From contig CANRHX010000003.1 of assembly GCA_947630545.1 (NCBI GenBank), positions 2,177 through 66,176 of the forward strand: 64,000 bases of DNA. The letters run 5' to 3'. Both the position numbers and the translations under genes were made by a program. Every line of letters begins with the position of its first letter. Position 1 is the stretch's first letter. The notes under the pieces were generated by a model. It worked only from the letters and a program-made list of their open reading frames with translations, ran no database searches and was not told the DNA's origin. The DNA is from an uncultured Clostridia bacterium. GTDB lineage: Bacteria > Bacillota > Clostridia > TANB77 > CAG-508. Of the stretch, positions 8,599 through 63,336 are shown piece by piece.

Positions 8599-9678
8599 AT
8601 GCGAGAAAATAGTATGAGTAGTTTAAGTTTAAATGAAACACCAGTTAGAACTTCAAAAAGTTTTAATATAAACAATATAAAATTAACTAATTTAGAACTT
8701 CCTAAAGTAATACAAGAATTTAATAATACACAAATAGTAAATGCCTCATCAAAAATAATAATAGAAGAAAAAAGAACACCTATAAGCTTAAAATATGGTT
8801 TAGGAGAAGAACAAACTAAGCAAGTGCAAACTGAAGCAAACCAAAATTATAAAATAGCTATAGATAGTAAAGTTAATAAAGACACAGAAATCAATTTTAA
8901 TTTTGACAACAATAACAATACTTTAATCGATAATATAGATATTTTAGCAAATGAACAAACAAATGCTACAATAATTTTAAAATATGAATCTTCTAAAGAA
9001 TTAGAATGTTATCACAACGGTGTACTAAAGTTATATGCTAAAAAGAATAGTCGAATCAATATAATAATTGTAAACTTATTAAGTGATATATCAAACAATT
9101 TTATTGCAATAGAAAATACTATAGAGGAAAATGCAAATGTAAAATATACTATTATAGATTTTGGAGGTCAAAATACCGTTACAAATTATTATTCAAATAT
9201 AATAGGAGACTTTGCAGATAATACATTAAATACAATTTATATTGGTAAAGATAGACAAATTATAGATTTAAATTATATAGCTGAATTAAAAGGAGAAAAA
9301 TCTAATATTAATATAGAAGTTCAAGGAGCATTGAAAGATAAAGCTAAAAAGAATTTTAAAGGAACTATAGACTTTAAAAAAGGATGTAAAAAAGCAAAAG
9401 GGGAAGAAAACGAAAATTGTATGCTTTTATCAGAAACAGCAAAATCAATAGCTTTGCCAATGTTATTATGTTCAGAAGAAGATGTAGAAGGTTCTCATAG
9501 CAGTTCTGCTGGAAAAGTAGGAGATAAAGAGTTATTCTATATTATGAGTAGAGGATTTGAATTAAAGGAAGCTCAAAAACTTTTAGTTAGAGCTAATTTT
9601 AATAAAATATTAGAAAATATAAAAAACGAAGAGTTAAAGCAAAAAGTATTGGATGAAATCAATTGGAGATTGGACTAA
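8599..9678 (+). CDS. sufD: Fe-S cluster assembly protein SufD
   Basis: SufB/SufD-family C-terminus ('SHSSSAGKVGDKELFYIMSRGFELKEAQKLLVRANF') and its position after sufB. The start is uncertain (8599 or 8614). Confidence 0.85.
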   Translation: MRENSMSSLSLNETPVRTSKSFNINNIKLTNLELPKVIQEFNNTQIVNASSKIIIEEKRTPISLKYGLGEEQTKQVQTEANQNYKIAIDSKVNKDTEINFNFDNNNNTLIDNIDILANEQTNATIILKYESSKELECYHNGVLKLYAKKNSRINIIIVNLLSDISNNFIAIENTIEENANVKYTIIDFGGQNTVTNYYSNIIGDFADNTLNTIYIGKDRQIIDLNYIAELKGEKSNINIEVQGALKDKAKKNFKGTIDFKKGCKKAKGEENENCMLLSETAKSIALPMLLCSEEDVEGSHSSSAGKVGDKELFYIMSRGFELKEAQKLLVRANFNKILENIKNEELKQKVLDEINWRLD

Positions 9679-9716
9679 TAAAATACATAAATATATAAAT
9701 TAATGGAGTGATATAA

Positions 9717-10955
9717 ATGGAATTAACAAATATAAAAGCAGATTTCCCATTATTAGTAAATAGAAAAATAGCATATTTAGATAGTGGTGCTACAACTCAA
9801 AAGCCATTTCCAGTAATAAATGCAATAAATGAATTTTATAAAAATTATAATGCAAATCCTCATAGAGGTGCTTATTCTTTAAGTATGGAAGCCACTGAAA
9901 TTTATGAAAATACAAGAACTAAAATTGCAAAATTCATAAATGCTAAGCATAGGGAAGAAATTATATTTTCAAAAAATGCAACAGAAAGCTTAAACTTAAT
10001 TGCATATTCTTATGGATTAGAAAATCTAAAAAAGAATGATGAAATTGTAATTTCAATAATGGAACATCATTCAAATTTAGTTCCTTGGCAAAAAGTAGCT
10101 AAAACAACAGGTGCAAAGTTAAATTATATGTATATAAATGATGAATTTGAAATATCAGACGAGGAAATACAAAACAAAATTACAGATAAAACAAAAATAG
10201 TTGGAATCACACATGTATCTAATGTTCTAGGAACAATAAATAATATAGATAAGATAATAAAATATGCACATAAAAAAGGTGCAATTGTTATAGTAGACGC
10301 TTCACAAAGTATTCCACACATGAAAATTGATGTTCAAAAATTAGATGCTGATTTTTTAGTGTTTTCAGGTCATAAAATGTTGGCGCCACTTGGAATTGGA
10401 GTTTTATATGGAAAGAAAGAATTATTAAATAATATGACACCTTTTTTAATGGGTGGAGACATGATAGAATACGTTCATGAACAAACTACTACTTATGCAC
10501 CACTTCCAAATAAATTTGAAGCAGGAACTCAAAATGTAGAAGGGGTTATTGGATTAGGTTCTGCAATTGATTATATAGAAAACATCGGATATGATAAAAT
10601 ACATGAGATAGAAGCGGAAATAGTAGGCTATGCAATAGAAAAATTATCTAAAATAGATTATTTAACTTTATACTTGACACCTAATAGGGAGCATCATTCT
10701 TCAGTAATCTCATTTAATATAAAAGGAGTTCATCCTCATGATGTTGCAAGTATATTAGATAATTATGGGGTTTGTGTACGTTCTGGAAATCATTGTGCAC
10801 AACCACTTTTAAGGAGTATGGGAATAGATTCAACCTGTAGAGCAAGTTTTTATTTTTATAATACTAAAGAAGACGTAGATAAGCTTTTAGAGGCTTTAGA
10901 TAAAGCTTATAAAATTTTTGAAAAATATATAACAAATAGTGCGAAAAAAAGCTAG
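9717..10955 (+). CDS. sufS: Cysteine desulfurase SufS (class II aminotransferase V)
   Basis: 'YLDSGATTQKP', PLP-lysine region 'FSGHKMLAPLGIGVLYG', active-site 'RSGNHCAQP'. Confidence 0.95.
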   Translation: MELTNIKADFPLLVNRKIAYLDSGATTQKPFPVINAINEFYKNYNANPHRGAYSLSMEATEIYENTRTKIAKFINAKHREEIIFSKNATESLNLIAYSYGLENLKKNDEIVISIMEHHSNLVPWQKVAKTTGAKLNYMYINDEFEISDEEIQNKITDKTKIVGITHVSNVLGTINNIDKIIKYAHKKGAIVIVDASQSIPHMKIDVQKLDADFLVFSGHKMLAPLGIGVLYGKKELLNNMTPFLMGGDMIEYVHEQTTTYAPLPNKFEAGTQNVEGVIGLGSAIDYIENIGYDKIHEIEAEIVGYAIEKLSKIDYLTLYLTPNREHHSSVISFNIKGVHPHDVASILDNYGVCVRSGNHCAQPLLRSMGIDSTCRASFYFYNTKEDVDKLLEALDKAYKIFEKYITNSAKKS

Positions 10956-50407: not shown

Positions 50408-50499
50408 AATTTTTGGTTTACTAATTTTAAAAGTAATGTTATACTAAAAATATTTATATGATATATATAAATATAATATTAAAATTAGGAGATAAATAC

Positions 50500-51018
50500 A
50501 TGGAAATAAGAGATTTATATGATTCTGAAAGAAATCTTACAGGTGAAACAATATTAAAAGGAGAGGAAATTCCTGAAGGAAGATATATATTAGTAGTTTC
50601 AGTATTTATACAGAATTCTGAGGGAAAGTTTTTAATTCAAAAAAGAAGTGAGATAAAAAATGGAAAGTTTGCAACAACAGGAGGTCATGCAAAAACTGGA
50701 GAAAATAGCATTCAAGCAATATTAGCTGAGGTTGAAGAAGAGATTGGTTTAAAATTAAATCCAAATGATTTACAATTATATTCTTCTAATAAGTTTGAAG
50801 AATATAGAGTTTTTGGCGATGATTACTATGTTAAAATGGATATAGAAGATATAAGCAATTTAAAATTGCAAAAAGAAGAAGTAGATTCTGTTCAATGGCT
50901 TTCTAAAGATGAAATTTTAGACTTAATGAAGCAAGATAAATTCTTTAAAAATCATTATGAAGAATTTGAAATATTAATTAATTGGTTAAATAAAAATAAA
51001 TTTTCAAATAAATGTTGA
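50500..51018 (+). CDS. NUDIX hydrolase
   Basis: Nudix box 'GGHAKTGENSIQAILAEVEEEIGL'; GGAG RBS before ATG 50500. Confidence 0.8.
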   Translation: MEIRDLYDSERNLTGETILKGEEIPEGRYILVVSVFIQNSEGKFLIQKRSEIKNGKFATTGGHAKTGENSIQAILAEVEEEIGLKLNPNDLQLYSSNKFEEYRVFGDDYYVKMDIEDISNLKLQKEEVDSVQWLSKDEILDLMKQDKFFKNHYEEFEILINWLNKNKFSNKC

Positions 51019-53387: not shown

Positions 53388-54191
53388 ATGTTAAATCAAA
53401 TTAAAATAATATTTATGGATTTAGATGGTACATTATTAAATAACAAACACGAAATATCAAATAGTTCCATAGAAATGATAAAAAAACTTGTAAGGAAGGG
53501 AATATATGTAATATTTTGTTCTGGAAGATCAACAAGTGACATAATTGAAAAAAGCAAAATAGCCTATGCAAGTTCTATAGTTGTTGCAAATAATGGTTCT
53601 ATTGTATTTGACTATGAAAAAAATTTTAAAATATATGAAAGTGCAATAGATTTAAATATCATAAAAGATATTTGGACATTTTCATTAAACAATCATATAT
53701 ACATAACATTGAATTCTGCATTTAAAAGATATAAAACCAAAGGATCAAGTAAACAGGCATTTATAATAGATACACCAGAAGCATTGGAGGACACAGTTGC
53801 TCAAATAGTTGTAGAAAGCCCATATGCTAAAAATATTATGCAATTAAAAGATTTTATTGAAAAAAAATATCAAAATATAGAAATTAAAAATATCTGGGAA
53901 ATTCCTAGTGTAGATTCCCAAGTTCCAATTTTTGAAGCAGATATATCCAATAAATTTAATAATAAAGGAAATTCTGTAAAAAAACTTTTAGAATACTTAC
54001 ACATTGAAAAAAAACAGGCAATGAGTTTTGGAGACCAAATTAATGATTTAGAAATGTTTGAAGCCTGTGGTACAAATATTGCTATGTGTAATGGCAATAA
54101 TATGTTAAAGCAAAAGGCAAATTTTGTAACAAAATATTCAAATAATCAAGATGGAATTGCAAAGTTTATTGAAAAATTAACGAATCATTGA
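53388..54191 (+). CDS. Cof-type HAD-IIB phosphatase
   Basis: 'IIFMDLDGTLLNNKHEIS' (motif I), 'FCSGRS', 'SFGDQINDLEMF' (motif IV). Confidence 0.85.
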   Translation: MLNQIKIIFMDLDGTLLNNKHEISNSSIEMIKKLVRKGIYVIFCSGRSTSDIIEKSKIAYASSIVVANNGSIVFDYEKNFKIYESAIDLNIIKDIWTFSLNNHIYITLNSAFKRYKTKGSSKQAFIIDTPEALEDTVAQIVVESPYAKNIMQLKDFIEKKYQNIEIKNIWEIPSVDSQVPIFEADISNKFNNKGNSVKKLLEYLHIEKKQAMSFGDQINDLEMFEACGTNIAMCNGNNMLKQKANFVTKYSNNQDGIAKFIEKLTNH

Positions 54192-55094: not shown

Positions 55095-55176
55095 AACTTT
55101 ATATTTAAATTATAAATTATATCAAGGAAGTAGATTTGTTTGAATATAAGGAATATAAAAAATGAGGAGGATTATT

Positions 55177-55851
55177 ATGGAAAAAAAATTAATAATATTT
55201 GATGTAGATGGAACAGTATGGGATAGTGAAAGAGATGTATTTGCCTCATTTAATCACACACTAAAAACAATGGCAGGATTTGAAATAACAAAGGAACAAT
55301 TTCAAACATTAGCAGGAATGCCTTTAGAAACTATGTTTGAAAAGATGTTACCAGATGATAAAAAACATTTATCAATAGAATGTGCAAAAGCATACAGAAA
55401 ATATTATATAGATGAAGGACATTTTATTGACGGAACAGTACTTTTTAAAGGCGTAAAAGAAACGATTGATAAATTTAAAAATGATGGATTTCATATGGCA
55501 GTTGCATCAAGTAAACCAAAAAGGATCCTAGACAAAATGGTATCAGTATTTAATTTAGAAGGATTTGACTATGTTTTAGGAACAGGGGAAAGCAATTTTA
55601 AACATAAACCAGATCCTGAAATAGTAAATTATATAATGAGTCAATTAAATATATCAAAAGAAGACGCTGTAATTGTTGGTGATAGTAAAAGTGATATACT
55701 TACAGGTAAAAATGCAGGTATAGATACAATAGCTGTTACATATGGATACGATAAACCAGAAAATCTAATAAATGCAAATCCAACTTTTGTAATAGATAAC
55801 TTTTCTAAGTTAGAAGATATTATAGAAATAAAAAATATGGATAAAGTTTAG
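55177..55851 (+). CDS. HAD-IA hydrolase (phosphoglycolate phosphatase/PpaX-like)
   Basis: 'LIIFDVDGTVWDS', 'VASSKP', 'VGDSKSDILTGKNAG'; GAGGAGG RBS before ATG 55177. Confidence 0.85.
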   Translation: MEKKLIIFDVDGTVWDSERDVFASFNHTLKTMAGFEITKEQFQTLAGMPLETMFEKMLPDDKKHLSIECAKAYRKYYIDEGHFIDGTVLFKGVKETIDKFKNDGFHMAVASSKPKRILDKMVSVFNLEGFDYVLGTGESNFKHKPDPEIVNYIMSQLNISKEDAVIVGDSKSDILTGKNAGIDTIAVTYGYDKPENLINANPTFVIDNFSKLEDIIEIKNMDKV

Positions 55852-55890: not shown

Positions 55891-55917
55891 GCAGATAATT
55901 AGTTGCTAATTATCTGC
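55891..55917. terminator. Perfect 12-bp hairpin, bidirectional terminator overlapping the tdk stop
   Basis: GCAGATAATTAG-ttg-CTAATTATCTGC followed by TTTT on the + strand. Confidence 0.7.
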
Positions 55918-56448
55918 TTTTAAGCTTAATTTGTTATAACAATTTCTACAAACTGGTATATATTCCGAATCTCCTATATAAACATCACTATTTTTTTGAC
56001 CTTTAAAAAATGAAAAAATTGCACATTCATTTTTGCAAATTTCACAAATAGAAGTCATCATTTGAACATTATCAGATATACACATTAAATCGCCCATTTT
56101 GCCAAAAGGCTTTTTTTCAGCAGTTAAATTAAGACCAGAAATATAGAATTTTTTACCGTTTGTAGCCATTTTTTCAATTGTATCAACTTCGCCATTTAAA
56201 AATTGAAATTCATCAATAAAATAAATATCAGCATTGTAATTTTGTAATTCTTCAATAGAATTTATATTAATTGCTTCAACCTTATTTCCAGAACGAGTTT
56301 GAACAATATTATTTCCATATCTATTATCAATACTAGGTTTAAAAACTTTAATATCTTTTCCTGTTATTATTTGTCTATCTAGTTCATTAAGCATTTTCTG
56401 TGTTTTTCCACATTTCATTGGACCAGTAAAAACATTAATATCTCCCAT
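55906..56448 (-). CDS. tdk: Thymidine kinase (TK1 type)
   Basis: 'VFTGPMKCGKTQ' P-loop, 'YFIDEFQF', C-terminal zinc ribbon 'CEICKNE...PVCRNCY'. Confidence 0.9.
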   Translation of the reverse strand: MGDINVFTGPMKCGKTQKMLNELDRQIITGKDIKVFKPSIDNRYGNNIVQTRSGNKVEAININSIEELQNYNADIYFIDEFQFLNGEVDTIEKMATNGKKFYISGLNLTAEKKPFGKMGDLMCISDNVQMMTSICEICKNECAIFSFFKGQKNSDVYIGDSEYIPVCRNCYNKLSLKADN

Positions 56449-56621: not shown

Positions 56622-56650
56622 TTGACAAAAAATATAATAGTATGTATAAT
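56622..56650 (+). promoter_or_regulatory. Consensus sigma-A promoter of the his-like/PurC-like operon
   Basis: TTGACA 56622-56627, 17-bp spacer, TATAAT 56645-56650; AGGAGG RBS about 5 nt before ATG 56703. Confidence 0.6.
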
Positions 56651-56702
56651 ACATATAAAGTTACTTATTGTAAAAAATATAATAAGTCAGAAGGAGGAAA
56701 AT

Positions 56703-57602
56703 ATGAAATTAAAAACAGGAAAATTAAATAATAGAGAAAGAAAATTTATATCAATACGAAAGAGTAAATTTGATGAATATGTAAAAAAATTAGATTTTGT
56801 AGAAAAATACAAAATTACACAGTATTATTTTCAAAATTACAAATATAGAAAATTTGAATCAGATGAAATTAAATTTACAAAAAGCAAAAAAGAAGGAGAA
56901 TTTACAACTGTTGAAGAAATATCTGAAAAAGAATTTTTAGAAAATTATAGTTATAATGTAGCAATAGTAAAGGAAAGAAACAAATTTAAAGATGGATTAT
57001 ATATTGTTGAAATAGATAAGTTTATACTACCTATACAAATTACTATGATAGAAGTTTCAAGTGATACTGAAGATTTAAAAAAGTATAAGTGCCCAGAAAC
57101 ATTTATTGAGGTCACTGATAATCCAATATATAAAAATATCAATATAATAAAAGGCAGTATAAAAAAATCTAACATAATAGTAGAAGGAACAGATGGAGTT
57201 GGAAAAACTACAACTATAATAAAGTTATTAGAAGATGGAATTGTATGTCAAGATAGATGTGAAGAAGTAATATCTAAGAATATGGTATTTAATGTAAATG
57301 ATAAAAAAAGAGCAAAAGAGATATATGAAAAATATTTCTCTATGAATACGGATATCTTAATTATTTTTCTAATAAATCTTGATAAAAAAGAATTAGAAAG
57401 TAGAATTTATCAAAGAGAAAGAATTTCAGAGTTTGATTTAAAAGCATATGAATATGGGCTACTTTATAAACAAACTTATGAGTATATGATAAAAAAATAT
57501 AATACTAAAGGTAGATTAATTTTGATAGATTGCAGTGGATTAAATATAGAAGAACAATATGAAAAAGTTAAAAATGTCATAATTGGAAAGGAGATGGATT
57601 AA
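56703..57602 (+). CDS. CYTH (triphosphate tunnel metalloenzyme) domain fused to a P-loop thymidylate/deoxynucleoside-kinase-like domain
   Basis: N-terminal half: 'NRERKFISI...ITQYYF...IVEIDKFILPIQITMIEVSS...FIEVTDNPIYKNINI' follows the CYTH pattern (EXEXK...QGYL...vD.f....l.l.EvE...EVT.d..Y.N). C-terminal half: 'IIVEGTDGVGKTT' P-loop from about nt 57183. Confidence 0.7.
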   Translation: MKLKTGKLNNRERKFISIRKSKFDEYVKKLDFVEKYKITQYYFQNYKYRKFESDEIKFTKSKKEGEFTTVEEISEKEFLENYSYNVAIVKERNKFKDGLYIVEIDKFILPIQITMIEVSSDTEDLKKYKCPETFIEVTDNPIYKNINIIKGSIKKSNIIVEGTDGVGKTTTIIKLLEDGIVCQDRCEEVISKNMVFNVNDKKRAKEIYEKYFSMNTDILIIFLINLDKKELESRIYQRERISEFDLKAYEYGLLYKQTYEYMIKKYNTKGRLILIDCSGLNIEEQYEKVKNVIIGKEMD

Positions 57603-58289
57603 ATGAAAATAGCTTTAATAACAGGTTGTAATAGAGGACTTGGAGAAGGAATAAGAAACATCTTATTAGAACAAGGATATAAAGTAATAGGTTTGAATCG
57701 AACTATTTCAAACCAAATAATAGAAAATTATACAGAAATAGAGTGTGATGTTTCAAAATATGAAAATATTCAAAAGATAAAAAACAAAGTAGATAAAAAA
57801 ATTGATTTATTGGTAATTAATGCAGGAATCAGAAGATTTGAAAAAATAGAAAATATGAAAGTGGATGACTGGAAAGATTCAGTAAATACAAATTTGAATG
57901 GTGCATTTTATGTATTAAATACATTTATAGAAAATGTAAAAAATGCTAAAGGTGATGTAGTAATAGTTGGTTCACATTCAGAAAAATACACCTTTGAAGA
58001 AGGAGGAGCATATTGTTCTACAAAACTAGCATTAAGAGGATTGGCAGAATGTTTAAGAGAAGAATTAAGATATGAAGATGTAAGGGTTTCTTATTTATCA
58101 CTTGGAAGTATAAAAAATAGGAATCACGGAATTTATGAAGACTGGAAATTAATGCCAGAGGAAGTTGGAAGGGCAATTGTAAATATTATAGATTTACCTA
58201 AAAAAATTTATATTCCATATTTAGACATAAGACCACTGAAACCACTAAAAGATCAAAAGAAAGGAATTGAGAGATTACAATATGTTTAA
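57603..58289 (+). CDS. Classical short-chain dehydrogenase/reductase (candidate CofA/PenB-type ketoreductase)
   Basis: 'ALITGCNRGLGEG' (TGxxxGxG), 'INAG', 'GSHS...YCSTK' catalytic S-Y-K. The start abuts the upstream stop (TAAATG). Confidence 0.85.
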   Translation: MKIALITGCNRGLGEGIRNILLEQGYKVIGLNRTISNQIIENYTEIECDVSKYENIQKIKNKVDKKIDLLVINAGIRRFEKIENMKVDDWKDSVNTNLNGAFYVLNTFIENVKNAKGDVVIVGSHSEKYTFEEGGAYCSTKLALRGLAECLREELRYEDVRVSYLSLGSIKNRNHGIYEDWKLMPEEVGRAIVNIIDLPKKIYIPYLDIRPLKPLKDQKKGIERLQYV

Positions 58290-59286
58290 TATAAAATGTA
58301 ATTATCAAATAACTATAGATAAAGAAAATGAGTTTATTGCAAAAATTTCACCACGAGAAAAAGTTTGCGTAAAAACTATAAATGCGTATGGAGATAGGTT
58401 TAAAAATATAAGCGAATTGATAGAACTAATAAATAACAAAAATGGTAAAACCCACCATCACCCATTAACAGGACCTATTTATATAGAAAATGCAAAACCA
58501 GGAGATGTACTAAAAGTTCATATATACAAAATAGATGTAGAAGAGATGGCACAAAGTATGTCTAAAACAGCAGGAATAGACCCAATAGAAAGCTCAGAAA
58601 TATCAGAAAGAGTACCTGCTATAGCAAAAAGATTAAAAAATGAATTAAAATATTTAAATAACATAAAGCTAAACTATAAACCTATGATAGGTATAATAGC
58701 AACAGCACCTAATGGTGAAAAAATAAAGACAGGTCATGCTGGACTTAGGAATGGTGGAAACCTAGACTTACCATTTATTACAGAAAATACAGATATATAT
58801 CTTCCTGTTGATATAGAAGGAGCTGGCTTATATTTAGGAGATATACATAGCTTGCAATCTTATGGAGAATTAAGTGGAATAGCAATGGAAGCATCTAGCA
58901 AAATTATACTTGATGTAGAAGTGATAAAAACTAATGAGCATTTAGATAATATTTTGGTAATTGGAAAAGAACCATTTTCGGAAAAAGAAGGAATTGGAAT
59001 TGTCGGAATAGGAGAAAAGATGAAAATGGAAGCTTCAGTATATGATGCATTTCAAGGAACTTATAATTTATTAAAACAAATTCTACCTAATTTGCCTAAA
59101 AATATTATTAAATCACTAATATCACTAATAGGAAATTCATTTAATGGTCAGGCATTTTCAAAAACATCAGAGTCAACGAGTATAATAGTTATTACAAAAG
59201 AAAATATTGAAAGAATAACACAAAATAAATATGAAGATTTATCAAAAGAAATTGAAAAAGTTTTATTTAAGAAAATTGAAGTATAA
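58267..59286 (+). CDS. Acetamidase/formamidase (FmdA/AmdA)-family protein
   Basis: 'HHHPLTGPIYIENAKPGDVLKVHIYKIDV' and 'GGNLDLPFITENTDIYLPV...GAGLYLGDIHSLQSYGE' match this family. The start (TTG 58267 or ATG 58282) overlaps the SDR stop. Confidence 0.75.
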   Translation: MRDYNMFNIKCNYQITIDKENEFIAKISPREKVCVKTINAYGDRFKNISELIELINNKNGKTHHHPLTGPIYIENAKPGDVLKVHIYKIDVEEMAQSMSKTAGIDPIESSEISERVPAIAKRLKNELKYLNNIKLNYKPMIGIIATAPNGEKIKTGHAGLRNGGNLDLPFITENTDIYLPVDIEGAGLYLGDIHSLQSYGELSGIAMEASSKIILDVEVIKTNEHLDNILVIGKEPFSEKEGIGIVGIGEKMKMEASVYDAFQGTYNLLKQILPNLPKNIIKSLISLIGNSFNGQAFSKTSESTSIIVITKENIERITQNKYEDLSKEIEKVLFKKIEV

Positions 59287-59300
59287 AAAGGAGGAAAAAT

Positions 59301-60488
59301 ATGAGTGAAAAACCTATAATTAAGTTAAGTGCTGGAAAAGGAAAATTATTACCTGTATTACAAGAATATTTGAAAAGTATAGGTCTTCCAGAAATAGAAG
59401 AGTCAAGAAAATTAGTTCATAAAATTGAAACACCTAATTACATTTTAGAAATTACTCTTTTAAGATGGGAAGATATAAAAAGATATAGTGATAAGTTCGA
59501 TATGATTATTTATGGAAGTGACCAATGGTTAGAAAGTGAAGACAAATCTATGATTTCTTTGAAATATTTCGAACAAAAAAATTGTAGAATAAGTTTACTA
59601 GTAAAAAAAGAACTAGCATATAAGCCATTTAGTTATTTTCAAAAAAGAAAAGTAGCAACACTCTATGAAAATTTAGCAGAAGATTATTTAGGAATAACAG
59701 AGGAAAATATAGTAAAGATTTCAGGTAACGTAGAAGCAGCTATTTCATTAGGGTGGGCCGATAGTATATTTGATGTTGTAGAAACAGGAACAAGTGCAAA
59801 AGAGAATGGACTTATAGAATATAAAACATTTGTAAAATTTGGAGCAATTTTAGCAACGAAAAAGGTAGAAAAAATTGATTTGTTTGAAAAATTAAGTTTA
59901 ATACCAAAACAAGAAAAAGGTAAAATCATAGCATTTGATGGATTAGATGGTTCAGGAAAATCTACACTAGCTAAATATTTGGTGCAAAATCCAATAATGG
60001 ATACAAACTCTAAGGTATTAATAACTCCATATTCAGGCAGAGTAGGAATTGAAGCAAAAAAATTATGGGATGAAGGCAAGTATGTAGAATGGGCTACAGA
60101 GATTGGTAAAAAACATTGGAGAGCGCCTAAATATGTAAATAGTATATACGATAGATCAATACTAACATTTATGACAGATTTAATAAAACAAAAATTTACA
60201 GATGAACAAATTTTAGAAGTAATAAATATATGGAAGCCTCTGCCAGATGTACTATTTTATTGCGACATATCACCAGAAATTGCTTTAGAAAGAACAAACA
60301 AAAGAAATAAAGGACAAGATGATTTTGATGAACTACAATCATTAAAAGAATACTACGTATTGTATAAAAAAGCAGTAGAATTTGTAAAAAAATATAATTT
60401 AACAAAAGTAGTAAAATTAAATACAAATAGACAAATTTCAGAAGTTATAAATATTGTTAAAGAAGATTTAGAAGGGAAAGTGAGGTAA
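59301..60488 (+). CDS. ATP phosphoribosyltransferase (short-form HisG)-like domain fused to a thymidylate-kinase-like domain
   Basis: N-terminal about 200 aa: 'IKLSAGKGKL', 'IIYGSDQWLE', 'KVATLYENLAEDYL', 'ISGNVEAAISLGWADSIFDVVETGTSAKENGL' (HisG signature region). C-terminal: 'IIAFDGLDGSGKST' P-loop and 'PDVLFYCDISPEIALERTNKR' (TMPK-like). Confidence 0.8.
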   Translation: MSEKPIIKLSAGKGKLLPVLQEYLKSIGLPEIEESRKLVHKIETPNYILEITLLRWEDIKRYSDKFDMIIYGSDQWLESEDKSMISLKYFEQKNCRISLLVKKELAYKPFSYFQKRKVATLYENLAEDYLGITEENIVKISGNVEAAISLGWADSIFDVVETGTSAKENGLIEYKTFVKFGAILATKKVEKIDLFEKLSLIPKQEKGKIIAFDGLDGSGKSTLAKYLVQNPIMDTNSKVLITPYSGRVGIEAKKLWDEGKYVEWATEIGKKHWRAPKYVNSIYDRSILTFMTDLIKQKFTDEQILEVINIWKPLPDVLFYCDISPEIALERTNKRNKGQDDFDELQSLKEYYVLYKKAVEFVKKYNLTKVVKLNTNRQISEVINIVKEDLEGKVR

Positions 60489-60490
60489 CT

Positions 60491-61246
60491 ATGTATACAA
60501 TAAAAAATAAAATTCCAGAAATAGAAGGTAAGTCTAAAAAAATATATAAATTAGATGAAAATAATTATTTTATGTGTTTTAAACCACATTTAAGGTCTAT
60601 AACATCTAAAAGAGAAAAAAATATAGAAGGAACAGAACATGAAAGATTACTAGCTAATATGTATTTTATGAACTTACTAGAAAGCAAAGGAATAAAAACA
60701 CAAATAAAAAATAAAAATATTCAAAATATTGATGGACAAGAAGGAATAATGGTAAAAAAAATAAAAACAATTCCTCTAGAATTTATTTGTAGATACTATG
60801 CAGCAGGAAGTATAGTAAGATTATATCCAAGTTTAGTAAAAGAAGGACAAAAATTTAAAAAGCCATTATATAAATTTGACTTAAAACAAGATATTAAAGT
60901 TGCAGGAGTAGATGATCCAACATTAAATGAAAATTATATTGTAGGATTAGAAATTTTAACGCAAGAGGAATTTGAAAAAACAAAAAACATATTAGCAAAA
61001 ATAGGAGAAATAGTAAGAGAAAATTTAGAAAAAGCTAAAATGAATTTAATAGATATGAAAATGGAAATGGGATTTGATGAAAAAGGACAAATAGTAGTAA
61101 TAGATGAAATTTCTCAAGATTGTATAAGAGCTAATGATATTGAAACAGGAAAAAGCTTAACAAAGGATTTATTTAGGCAATTGAAAAATGATGAAGAAGT
61201 TTTAAATGCATATATAGAATTTAATAAAAGGCTAGAAATAAAATAG
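60491..61246 (+). CDS. SAICAR-synthetase (PurC)-family protein, divergent (candidate CofB/PenC-type cyclase)
   Basis: 'EGKSKKIYKLDENNY', 'IPLEFICRYYAAGS', 'LIDMKMEMGFDEKGQIVVIDEISQDCIRANDIETGKSLTKDLFRQ' align along the whole length with PurC as I remember it. The segment where PurC has a D-x-x-T-A-F-[ND]-type motif reads 'FKPHLRSITSKRE'. Confidence 0.75.
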   Translation: MYTIKNKIPEIEGKSKKIYKLDENNYFMCFKPHLRSITSKREKNIEGTEHERLLANMYFMNLLESKGIKTQIKNKNIQNIDGQEGIMVKKIKTIPLEFICRYYAAGSIVRLYPSLVKEGQKFKKPLYKFDLKQDIKVAGVDDPTLNENYIVGLEILTQEEFEKTKNILAKIGEIVRENLEKAKMNLIDMKMEMGFDEKGQIVVIDEISQDCIRANDIETGKSLTKDLFRQLKNDEEVLNAYIEFNKRLEIK

Positions 61247-61263: not shown

Positions 61264-61710
61264 GTGAAGGATTCAGAAAAAAGATATAGAGTATATGAAT
61301 ATATGAGAGATAATAAAGAAATAACAGAAGAAATGTCAAACACTAAAAAAATCATTTTAAAACTTATGAATAACGATAAACAAACTGAAGAATATTGTAA
61401 TAAAAAAATATTAGAAGAAAAGCAAGAAATAGAAGAAGCAATGATAGGAGAGCACTATCATGAGAATATGACTAAAAGAGAAATTCTAATAAATGAAATA
61501 TCGCAATATATTTATTGGCAAACTTTACTGGCAGTAAGTAAAAAAATTAAATATGAAGATTTTGATGGAGAGAATAAAATAGAAGAAATTTTAAAAAAAG
61601 TTGATATTAAAAAAATAGAAGAAACGAAATTAATAACCGTAAATGAAGTAATTCTACATGACTTAGAGCAAATGAAAAATAAAGAATATCTAAAAAAAGT
61701 AATTGTATAG
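61264..61710 (+). CDS. All-alpha NTP pyrophosphohydrolase, HisE (phosphoribosyl-ATP pyrophosphatase)/MazG-like
   Basis: 'KKILEEKQEIEEAM...REILINEISQYIYWQTLLAVSKKIKYEDF' parallels the HisE 'K[VI]GEEA.E......E.[IL].E.ADL.YH..VLL...G[IV]...[VI]' helices. GTG start after GGAGG. Weaker call. Confidence 0.5.
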   Translation: MKDSEKRYRVYEYMRDNKEITEEMSNTKKIILKLMNNDKQTEEYCNKKILEEKQEIEEAMIGEHYHENMTKREILINEISQYIYWQTLLAVSKKIKYEDFDGENKIEEILKKVDIKKIEETKLITVNEVILHDLEQMKNKEYLKKVIV

Positions 61711-61775: not shown

Positions 61776-62735
61776 ATGATAATACCTTCAATTGATATAA
61801 TGAATGGAAAAGTAGTTCAACTAAAACAGGGAAAAGAGAAAGTATATGAAAACGATAATATAGAAGAGGTAGTAGAACAATTTAGAATATTTCCACAAAT
61901 AAATGTTATAGACTTAGATTTAGCAATAAATAATGGAAGTAATAAAGAACTAATTAAAAAACTATGTAGAAAATTAACTTGTAATGTAGGTGGGGGAATT
62001 AGAAGTACTAAGTTAGCAAAAGAATTTTTAAATGCAGGTGCAAATAGTGTAATAATAGGAACTAAAGCCAATAAGGAATTTTTAACAGAATTACCTAGAA
62101 ATAAGATAATAGTAGCATTAGATACTAAAAATGGTAAAATAGCTACACATGGCTGGAGTGAACTAAAAGAAGAAAATATTTATGAAAAAATACACGAATT
62201 AGAGGACTATTGTTATAAATTTTTAATTACGAATATAAATGTAGAAGGACTAAATAAAGGCACAGATCTAAAGTTTTTTGAAACATTAGTAGGAAAAACT
62301 AAAAATGATATTATGGTTGCAGGAGGAATTACAACTATTGAGGAAATAAAATATATTCATAAACTAGGTTTTGATCAAATATTAGGAATGGCTATAACTT
62401 CTGGTAGATTAAATATTATGGAATGTTATATAGAAATAATGGATTTTAAAAAACAAAATGGATTAATACCAACAATAGTACAAGATATATATACAAAAGA
62501 AGTTTTGATGCTTGCTTATTCTTGCAAAGAAAGTTTGAAAAAAACATATGAGATAAGAAAGGCGACTTATTATAGTAGAAGTAGAAAAAAATTATGGACA
62601 AAAGGAGAAAAAAGTGGTAACATACAATATATAGAAAAAATTTATTTAGACTGTGATTCAGATACAATTTTGTTTTTAGTAAGACAGAAAGGAATGGCAT
62701 GTCATAGAAATAAAAGTACATGCTTTACGATATAG
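61776..62735 (+). CDS. HisA-like (ProFAR isomerase TIM barrel) fused to HisI (phosphoribosyl-AMP cyclohydrolase)
   Basis: N-terminal: 'MIIPSIDIMNGKVVQLKQGK', 'NVGGGIRS', 'VIIGT', 'MVAGGITT' (HisA/HisF fold). C-terminal from about nt 62448: 'GLIPTIVQDIYTKEVLMLAYSCKESL...YYSRSRKKLWTKGEKSGNIQYI...DCDSDTILFLVRQKGMACH' (PRA-CH). Confidence 0.85.
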   Translation: MIIPSIDIMNGKVVQLKQGKEKVYENDNIEEVVEQFRIFPQINVIDLDLAINNGSNKELIKKLCRKLTCNVGGGIRSTKLAKEFLNAGANSVIIGTKANKEFLTELPRNKIIVALDTKNGKIATHGWSELKEENIYEKIHELEDYCYKFLITNINVEGLNKGTDLKFFETLVGKTKNDIMVAGGITTIEEIKYIHKLGFDQILGMAITSGRLNIMECYIEIMDFKKQNGLIPTIVQDIYTKEVLMLAYSCKESLKKTYEIRKATYYSRSRKKLWTKGEKSGNIQYIEKIYLDCDSDTILFLVRQKGMACHRNKSTCFTI

Positions 62736-62761: not shown

Positions 62762-63271
62762 ATGCCAGGATATGCAATACATTTAGCAATAGGTAAGGTT
62801 TACCAGCAAAATAATGATATTAATGATATAAAGAGTTTTGAAAGAGGAATTATAACACCAGATTTAGCAAAAGATAAAGCCAAATCTCATTATGGAACAT
62901 ATTCAAGTAATCCAGACTTAAATAGATATTTAAAAGAAAAAAATATTTTAAATGAATTTGATGAAGGATATTTTTTACATCTAGTAACTGATTATTTGTT
63001 TTATAATAAATATTTAAAAAAATGGGATAAGAATATTTATAATGATTATGATAAGCTAAATGATAGAATAATAAAAAGATATAACATTGTACTTCCAAGA
63101 TATTTATTAGAAATAGTAAATATTAAAGATGGAAAATTAGAAATATTAAATGAAGAAGATATATATAGATTTATAGATGTTGTTGGAAAAATAAATATTA
63201 GAGAATTATTAAGAGAAAAGGTAGTAAACTTTCAAAATAAGGTATCAGAAATACAATTTGAAGGAAGATAA
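62762..63271 (+). CDS. Hypothetical protein (possibly metal-dependent hydrolase-like)
   Basis: 169-aa ORF 26 nt after the HisA-HisI gene, with a GGTGAG RBS. 'GYAIHLAIG...SHYG...YFLHLVTDY' is His-rich but I cannot assign a family. Confidence 0.4.
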   Translation: MPGYAIHLAIGKVYQQNNDINDIKSFERGIITPDLAKDKAKSHYGTYSSNPDLNRYLKEKNILNEFDEGYFLHLVTDYLFYNKYLKKWDKNIYNDYDKLNDRIIKRYNIVLPRYLLEIVNIKDGKLEILNEEDIYRFIDVVGKINIRELLREKVVNFQNKVSEIQFEGR

Positions 63272-63336
63272 TAGTTAGAAGATTTTAATTTGAAAGTGAT
63301 TTAACTATAATTTCTATGTGTGCCATTGAGCCAATC

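Follow-up and report, generated by a model that had tools for sequence, protein, structure and literature searches.

SAICAR-synthetase (PurC) homologs belong to the described pathways of the 1,3-diazepine nucleosides, as CofB in coformycin formation by Streptomyces kaniharaensis, PenC in pentostatin formation by S. antibioticus and AdeA in the adechlorin pathway. In work attributed to Ren et al. (2020), CofB reportedly turns the HisA product into 8-ketocoformycin 5'-phosphate with release of ammonia and erythronate 4-phosphate. The enzyme is said to be activated by ATP without consuming it, and CofA then reportedly reduces the ketone. Here we describe a PurC-like protein encoded by an open reading frame (ORF) at positions 60491-61246 (+) of a 64,000-nucleotide stretch, called the window below, from an uncultured Clostridia bacterium (assembly GCA_947630545.1, contig CANRHX010000003.1). 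We consider it probable, though well short of certain, that this protein is the CofB/PenC-equivalent ring-forming (ring-remodelling) enzyme, a neofunctionalised PurC paralog within a gene cassette. Judging from its gene content, the cassette most likely diverts the first steps of the histidine pathway, and its product would be a coformycin- or pentostatin-like nucleotide, that is, one that blocks adenosine deaminase.

In the pentostatin route, PenA, a HisG homolog, condenses ATP or deoxy-ATP (dATP) with phosphoribosyl pyrophosphate (PRPP), and HisI, HisE and HisA process the product (PMC12648386 and PMC11611020). PenC then builds the ring and PenB, a short-chain dehydrogenase (SDR), carries out the last step (same sources). 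According to PMC11611020, HisG, a PurC-like protein and an SDR make up a gene trio that is sufficient for pentostatin. Copies of hisG and of hisA/priA have been recruited into such clusters in Actinomycetota (PMC13055916), and a review assigns cns3 to pentostatin in Cordyceps militaris (PMC12648386). The operon of the window joins the gene set of this published pentostatin logic to the histidine steps that its host otherwise lacks, and it is for this reason that the CofB/PenC-equivalent reading is favoured here.

Fold and family of the PurC-like protein

The ATG of the PurC-like gene lies 2 nucleotides downstream of the stop codon of a gene for a HisG protein fused to a thymidylate-kinase-like (TMK) domain, and a GAGG ribosome-binding site is found 7 nucleotides upstream of the frame. 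The protein matched the SAICAR_synt family (PF01259) with 132.5 bits, its residues 12-236 corresponding to profile positions 4-224 of 233. A PDB sequence search retrieved ten PurC/PAICS crystal structures, the best being that of M. jannaschii (2YZL, E 1.6e-30). An AlphaFold2 model built from a 40-sequence alignment reached a pLDDT of 95.5 and a pTM of 0.91, and all of its significant PDB fold matches (38/38) were SAICAR synthetases; against 2YZL it gave TM scores of 0.88/0.92 and a root-mean-square deviation of 2.1 A. The sequence matches and the model confirm the ORF as a genuine PurC paralog with a predicted intact SAICAR-synthetase fold. Its relatives carry the database name phosphoribosylaminoimidazole-succinocarboxamide synthase. 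With the NCBIfam purC equivalog model TIGR00081, the protein scored 116.4 bits, under the cut-off of 189.9, and it was likewise far under the cut-off of each of the remaining NCBIfam purC models. A search of 1.84 billion representatives yielded just three full-length clusters at 50% for the family. In a quick maximum-likelihood tree the family of the window protein, called class A below, formed a clade with a support of 99 on a long stem.

The rewritten loop

We aligned 22 class A proteins and six proteins of a sister family (class B, see below) with human PAICS, E. coli PurC and 12 further canonical PurCs using MAFFT; the human sequence used agrees with all 24 residue identities given in PMC9376930. 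In human PAICS the ATP residues are G16, K17, T18 and K19, with further ATP contacts through K19 and N43 (ATP phosphates) and K131 (PMC9376930). The SAICAR site comprises T40, A41, G42, N43, E97, V99, F129, K131, D133, D137, M190, K191, E193, D207, D212, S213, W214, R215, K228 and R232; among these E97 and D137 are the Mg ligands, and T40, K191, K228 and R232 bind the aspartate substrate (PMC9376930).

The segment CFKPHLRSITSKREKNIEG of the window protein stands where canonical PurC has F[KR]DD.TA[FG][DN]G.K. Human T40, A41, G42 and N43 correspond to R35, S36, I37 and T38, and the T/S-A-G/F-D/N of the 14 canonical sequences reads R-S-I/V-T in class A. Since all 22 class A members, down to 45% identity, have R35, S36 and T38, the loop change is not noise; position 37 is either I or V. 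Another replacement, C211 for human S213, is invariant in the same 22 sequences, and P32, H33, E42, R52, Y102, Q209, A214 and T224 likewise do not vary in class A, although few or none of the canonical PurCs share them. The window protein keeps 14 of the 24 human active-site residues, and these are conserved throughout class A (22/22): G16, K17, K19, E97, K131, D133, D137, K191, E193, D207, D212, R215, K228 and R232, which in the window numbering are G13, K14, K16, E97, K132, D134, D142, K190, E192, D205, D210, R213, K225 and R229. Judged from the alignment, the rewriting is real, limited to a few active-site elements and under strong purifying selection, and the ATP, Mg and acyl-phosphate machinery is untouched.

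A preliminary description of this DNA had claimed an end-to-end alignment with PurC and a rewritten substrate-binding segment. The first claim stands because of the Pfam span and the PDB match given above, and the second agrees with the replacement of the canonical segment and the invariance of the three loop residues. The rewriting is narrower than that description implied: the loop and residues 211-212 are changed, while K190, K225, R229 and the ATP and Mg residues are intact. The description had also held that a new function would be refuted if the residues for binding aspartate and carboxyaminoimidazole ribonucleotide (CAIR) were intact and the enzyme made SAICAR; on the residues the alignment gives a divided answer, with three of the four aspartate binders intact and the equivalent of the fourth, T40, replaced by R35.

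Separation from purine biosynthesis

The PurC-like gene does not encode the housekeeping enzyme. A canonical purC with the DRISAFD motif, scoring 283 bits, is present in addition in the window genome (1.43 Mb in 44 contigs, 99.6% complete). This canonical gene adjoins purE and purH on another contig (C20), where purB and purM also lie, so that all located pur genes (purE, purH, purC, purB, purM) are on that contig. Pfam scans of roughly 8 kb to each side of the PurC-like gene found no pur gene. In five other carrier genomes that we checked, no purM was found, and in three of these five, which belong to the same genus, there was no other SAICAR_synt (PF01259) gene. Because purM is lacking, CAIR would not be made in these carriers, yet they keep the PurC-like gene. 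Judging from gene content, the PurC-like protein is neither needed for de novo purine synthesis nor linked to it in occurrence. In two genomes of the same order (G078 and G031) a canonical purC is present and purM is absent, which leaves a partial purine pathway. We also considered whether the cassette might feed aminoimidazole carboxamide ribonucleotide (AICAR) to PurH as a form of purine salvage, and rejected this since there would be no net purine gain, carriers without purM exist and the cassette is accessory.

The operon and its histidine genes

The genes of the operon are given in Table 1. One HisG match and one His_biosynth match were found in the window genome, both in this operon, and HisE-like and HisI sequences are also found only here. 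hisD, imidazoleglycerol-phosphate dehydratase (IGPD, hisB) and a second barrel protein (hisF) are absent from the window genome, and no hisD was found in the five other carriers. Because of the absence of hisD, hisB and hisF, the pathway encoded in the genome runs from ATP and PRPP to the HisA product and then stops. By its gene content the host is unable to make histidine.

The preliminary description had placed the gene among his-like rather than pur genes, and both halves of that statement were borne out, by HisG-TMK, HisE-like and HisA-HisI proteins in one operon and by the location of the pur genes on contig C20. Its suggestion of a neofunctionalisation like that of CofB and PenC gains support from the canonical purC elsewhere in the genome, the score under the equivalog cut-off, the invariant loop, the five carriers without purM, the fusions with HisG-TMK and HisE-like proteins (see below) and the lack of hisD, hisB and hisF.

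Table 1. Features of the cassette operon in the window and the evidence for each
Feature	Position	Strand	Evidence or remark
P-loop kinase-like protein, first operon gene, accessory	56622..57602	+	weak AAA/TMK P-loop matches; among relatives only in L013 and L014
Sigma-70-type consensus promoter TTGACA-17-TATAAT	56622..56650	+	12/12 match
Short-chain dehydrogenase (SDR), candidate CofA/PenB-type ketoreductase	57603..58289	+	PF00106, 119 bits
FmdA/AmdA-family amidase, constant neighbour of the PurC-like gene	58267..59286	+	PF03069, 89 bits
HisG (N-terminal half) fused to thymidylate-kinase-like P-loop domain	59301..60488	+	PF01634, 82.5 bits; PF02223, 39.5 bits
PurC-like protein, 251 aa (P0001), PurC paralog of the class A cassette	60491..61246	+	Pfam PF01259, AlphaFold2 model, tree
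Rewritten loop of the PurC-like protein, residues 29-47, CFKPHLRSITSKREKNIEG	60575..60631	+	alignment with 14 canonical PurCs, human PAICS and E. coli PurC included
Divergent HisE-like (phosphoribosyl-ATP pyrophosphatase-like) protein	61264..61710	+	NF001610, E 4.6e-4
HisA-HisI fusion (ProFAR isomerase and PR-AMP cyclohydrolase)	61776..62735	+	PF00977, 140.5 bits; PF01502, 107.8 bits
169-aa protein without Pfam family	62762..63271	+	present in L007-L009, L013 and L014; often kept after HisA-HisI
NrtR-like regulator, 265 aa in full, extends beyond window end	63316..64000	+	PF21906 NrtR_WHD, 57 bits (full protein)

The listed TTG start of the first gene overlaps the -35 box of the promoter, and the true start is therefore probably the ATG at 56703. 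No terminator-like site was found between 55800 and 64000. The amidase matched the PDB entries 3TKK, 2II1 and 2F4L ('predicted acetamidase') at E 5e-28, and a profile of eight HisE-like orthologs found the HisE of M. tuberculosis (structures 3C90 and 1Y6X, E 0.0027). The NrtR-like regulator is kept beside the cassette in loci L007-L010 and L012-L014. Just upstream of the operon lie genes for a thymidine kinase (55906-56448 (-)), two HAD phosphatases (53388-54191 (+) and 55162-55851 (+)) and a NUDIX hydrolase (50458-51018 (+)), which might serve in the final dephosphorylation or in nucleotide housekeeping.

Conservation, fusions and distribution of the cassette

The block made of SDR, amidase, HisG-TMK, PurC-like, HisE-like and HisA-HisI genes is kept in eight metagenome-assembled genomes (MAGs) of gut Clostridia with 75-86% identity and, in another gene order and with 42-52% identity, on a contig labelled Nanoarchaeota (L015). 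The arrangement of SDR, HisG and PurC-like genes is conserved in nine loci and additionally in L026-L028; the SDR is absent from a few contexts, namely L019/L020 and the Paenibacillus locus L024. A high-GC branch (47% identity), with neighbours of Planctomycete type, shows the order [SDR]-amidase-HisG/TMK-PurC-like-HisE-like without HisA-HisI, and a MAG labelled archaeon (L026) has SDR-amidase-HisG/TMK-PurC-like. In every cassette with sufficient flanking sequence the amidase gene is adjacent or fused, and HisG is always present, usually fused to TMK.

Several of these proteins are joined to one another in other carriers. HisG-TMK is fused to the PurC-like protein in a metagenome protein of 668 aa (P0123), the PurC-like protein to the HisE-like protein in products of about 385 aa in L010 (5435-6658) and L012 (9983-11137), the amidase to HisG-TMK in a 737-aa protein (L027:4791-7004), and HisA, HisI and HisE to one another in a 406-aa protein (L028:8175-9395), after which there is a Ham1/ITPase-like gene.

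The cassette is patchy and accessory: of the 33 other species sampled in the genus, 3 have it, and at the level of the order it is present in 8 of the 201 genomes sampled. It is small and, by its distribution, appears horizontally spread. The copies on the Nanoarchaeota-labelled contig and in the archaeon-labelled MAG L026, both binned as DPANN-type archaea, represent either cross-domain transfer or mis-binning. One high-GC cassette (L019, flanks 2119-3941 and 9650-10753) lies between AAA_21/DUF4276 genes and a gene with a TIR_2 domain, in a setting that resembles a defence island. A high-GC member, P0124, was tried as a representative of the actinomycete CofB/PenC clade and rejected on the basis of its PSCyt2/PSD1/DUF1501 neighbours and archaeal labels. 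The searches also brought up another odd PurC-like clade (the 50%-cluster representatives P0225, P0232, P0246, P0253 and P0269), whose loop region contains a GVFDPG.N.VG insert and which has no LDKD.FR aspartate-binding motif. A search of phages revealed ordinary purC-like auxiliary genes only (cyanophages and gut phage contigs, at most 34% identity) and did not find the cassette.

The sister cassette of Bacillus and Paenibacillus

A translated plasmid search revealed a PurC-like gene with 38.8% identity on megaplasmids of B. toyonensis (protein WP_070174146), B. cereus and B. thuringiensis. There the cassette has the order Cof-type HAD, PurC-like, acetamidase/formamidase, HisG and SDR, as in the 355-kb plasmid p355 of B. 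toyonensis (L023, NZ_CP036055.1, 250838-254759); a gene of the colicin E3/pyocin S6 family is located a few kb from this cassette. All four core genes are homologous to those of the window cassette: identity between the Bacillus and window proteins amounts to about 38% for the PurC-like protein, 43% for the SDR (full length, including the ERLQY tail), 32% for the amidase and 26% for HisG. Class B relatives are also encoded by Paenibacillus polymyxa, P. aquistagni and P. agilis. The P. polymyxa locus (L024, 6191-14705) encodes, in this order, HAD, PurC-like, amidase and HisG proteins, three ATP-grasp ligases, a major facilitator superfamily (MFS) transporter and an amidohydrolase, a gene set whose product may be the same nucleoside core with a peptidyl group attached. 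Another contig (L025) carries SDR, HAD, PurC-like and amidase genes and an ABC exporter.

Class A and class B have the derived residues S15, S36, T38, R52, K128 and Y149 in common. As class B joins class A in the tree with moderate support (84-93 SH-aLRT, by a quick method and with long branches), the sister relationship rests mainly on these derived residues and on the gene neighbours. The class B loop reads FLDS.[ST]S.T; after FLD it has [ST]-S-Y-T whereas the window family has KPH.RS.T. Class B also differs in retaining the SPD..R.WD and LDKD.FR motifs of canonical PurC and in having a short HisG without the kinase domain. The his E, I and A genes are missing from the sister cassette because its hosts have their own.

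Proposed pathway and alternatives

In the pathway that we propose, HisG would condense ATP or dATP with PRPP, and the HisE-like, HisI and HisA proteins would convert the product to phosphoribulosyl-formimino-AICAR (PRFAR), the last histidine-pathway step encoded. The PurC-like enzyme would act on the AICAR-type carboxamide/carboxylate end of this bis-phosphorylated intermediate and close a new ring, a step modelled on the formation of 8-keto-(deoxy)coformycin 5'-phosphate by CofB/PenC. The SDR would reduce the ketone and a HAD or other phosphatase would free the nucleoside, the adenosine-deaminase inhibitor. More speculatively, the amidase could first turn the 4-carboxamide into a carboxylate by hydrolysis, and the PurC-like enzyme could phosphorylate this carboxylate with ATP as PurC does CAIR; the second phosphate of the bis-phosphorylated substrate might then be held, where PurC holds aspartate, by R35 and the retained K225 and R229. 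Searches of full texts brought up no paper on this cassette, on the amidase link or on diazepine-nucleoside genes in Bacillota/Firmicutes producers.

Several points weigh against this proposal. The kinship of the PurC-like protein to CofB, PenC and AdeA would be one of pathway role, as it is drawn from gene content and published descriptions, and the PDB sequence and fold matches of the protein included no structure of CofB, PenC or AdeA. The family is isolated, the scores among the 1.84 billion representatives falling from 229 to 116 bits beyond its three clusters, where ordinary PurCs begin. The intact aspartate-carboxylate binders K190, K225 and R229 (the equivalents of K191, K228 and R232) would allow an amide-ligase reaction with an acid or amine substrate. 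In favour of the proposal, no adenosine deaminase family (PF00962) match was found in the window genome, but this is weak evidence, as PF00962 occurs in just 6 of the 14 control genomes. Finally, a formamidase-family gene is unmentioned for the pen, cof and ade clusters in the literature that we examined and is invariable in the window-type cassette. As the amidase is a constant partner from outside the known pathway, the chemistry or the product may differ, and it suggests a variant of the known scheme. We tentatively put forward, as a possibility that we hold to be less probable than the CofB/PenC-equivalent role itself, that the PurC-like protein and the FmdA/AmdA amidase form an undescribed two-enzyme module in which the amidase unmasks a carboxylate on an intermediate of the histidine pathway and the PurC-like enzyme spends ATP on its activation and closes the ring. 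Such a module would offer an ATP-driven route to a diazepine or to a new ring-remodelled purine nucleotide, unlike the single-enzyme CofB route, and it would be spread among gut Clostridia, Bacillus/Paenibacillus, high-GC environmental bacteria and DPANN-type archaea.

In a rather unlikely alternative, the cassette makes no 1,3-diazepine but an N-substituted or re-closed purine-like nucleotide. The amidase would turn the 4-carboxamide of ProFAR or PRFAR into a carboxylate, and the PurC-like protein would be a true ATP-consuming ligase that joins to it a nitrogen, either one of the same molecule or one supplied by a new amine substrate; reduction of the ribulosyl ketone by the SDR would follow. 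The retention of the ATP, Mg and acyl-phosphate-forming residues of PurC together with K190, K225 and R229 would fit such a ligase, as would the invariable amidase, missing from the descriptions of the known diazepine clusters, and the three ATP-grasp ligases of the Paenibacillus version, which suggest more amide-bond chemistry. However, HisG, PurC-like and SDR are the very trio that suffices for pentostatin (PMC11611020), no known natural product of this type is linked to these genes, and the rewritten part is the loop that in PurC positions the amine substrate (T40).

It is less probable still that the modified nucleotide is used inside the cell, as a signal or in an anti-phage or conflict system, and is kept phosphorylated by the kinase domains instead of being secreted as an adenosine-deaminase inhibitor. 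The TMK-like kinase fused to HisG and the further kinase-like gene are consistent with this idea, and so are the conserved NrtR-like nucleotide-sensing regulator, the Ham1/ITPase-like gene after the cassette in L028, the mobility and patchiness of the cassette, and the window operon, which encodes no exporter. The TIR_2 and AAA_21/DUF4276 genes near one high-GC copy point the same way, but such defence-type neighbours were seen at that single locus only. Moreover, HAD phosphatases recur in class B cassettes and just upstream of the window operon, which fits the release of a free nucleoside, and MFS or ABC exporters accompany the Paenibacillus and L025 versions.

It is very improbable that the protein simply works in purine biosynthesis as a second, ordinary isozyme of SAICAR synthetase: it has a complete PurC fold and Pfam match, relatives bearing the enzyme's database name and intact equivalents of K191, K228 and R232, but its score is under the purC equivalog cut-off, the T40 and N43 equivalents are invariantly replaced, a canonical purC exists in pur context, five carriers lack purM and so the CAIR substrate (three of them lack canonical purC as well), and it occurs fused to HisG-TMK or HisE-like proteins in a patchy, accessory distribution.

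Significance

Pentostatin is a leukaemia drug, and to our knowledge coformycin and pentostatin come only from Actinomycetota and a few fungi. If the CofB/PenC-equivalent reading is true, common Clostridia of the gut have a compact and self-contained form of such a pathway. Gut bacteria may then be a source of potent adenosine-deaminase inhibitors, which would affect microbe-host purine signalling, and the same would apply to the carriers among B. cereus-group plasmids, Paenibacillus and archaeal-labelled MAGs. The PurC-like protein would then be a clean case of enzyme repurposing, in which one four-residue loop of PurC was swapped and the ATP/Mg machinery kept, and its obligatory amidase partner points to a chemistry undescribed for CofB/PenC. 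The present analysis contributes the residue-level test, the carriers without purM, the fusions, the pairing with the amidase and the sister cassette in cultured bacteria. Cultured carriers (B. toyonensis and P. polymyxa) make the question of the product directly testable.

Comparison with known systems

With housekeeping PurC (EC 6.3.2.6; 2YZL, E. coli 2GQS and the N-terminal domain of human PAICS) the window protein has the same fold and 28-33% identity. Both have the GK.K P-loop-like motif, the Mg ligands E97/D142 and residues K132, K190, E192, D205, D210, R213, K225 and R229. They differ in the loop, where T-A-G/F-N/D has become R-S-I/V-T, and in several motifs, SPD.. reading SQDC., LDKD reading LTKD and VRN reading CRY in the window protein, which also has a four-residue insert ahead of the DDP motif. 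Unlike housekeeping PurC, the window protein falls below the equivalog cut-off, lacks a pur context and occurs in genomes without purM.

Cns3 of Cordyceps militaris consists of a nucleoside/nucleotide kinase domain and a HisG domain. It is comparable to the HisG-TMK protein of the window, not to the PurC-like protein: in both, a HisG domain is joined to a domain of nucleotide-kinase type within a known or proposed pentostatin-type pathway. However, Cns3 is fungal, its domains are in the reversed order, and the cns cluster is not described with a PurC-like gene.

The closest parallel, drawn by gene content only, is with CofB, PenC and AdeA. As in their pathways, the PurC homolog of the window has a HisG homolog of the PenA/AdeC type and an SDR of the CofA/PenB type as neighbours, the HisE, HisI and HisA steps serve as supply, and the gene is a second copy besides the housekeeping purC. 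In contrast, the window-type cassette is hosted not by Actinomycetota but by gut Clostridia, other Bacillota, high-GC environmental bacteria and archaeal-labelled MAGs. The window-type cassette also differs in the fusion of HisG to TMK and in always having the FmdA/AmdA amidase, and in histidine-auxotrophic hosts it supplies its own HisE-like and HisA-HisI proteins.

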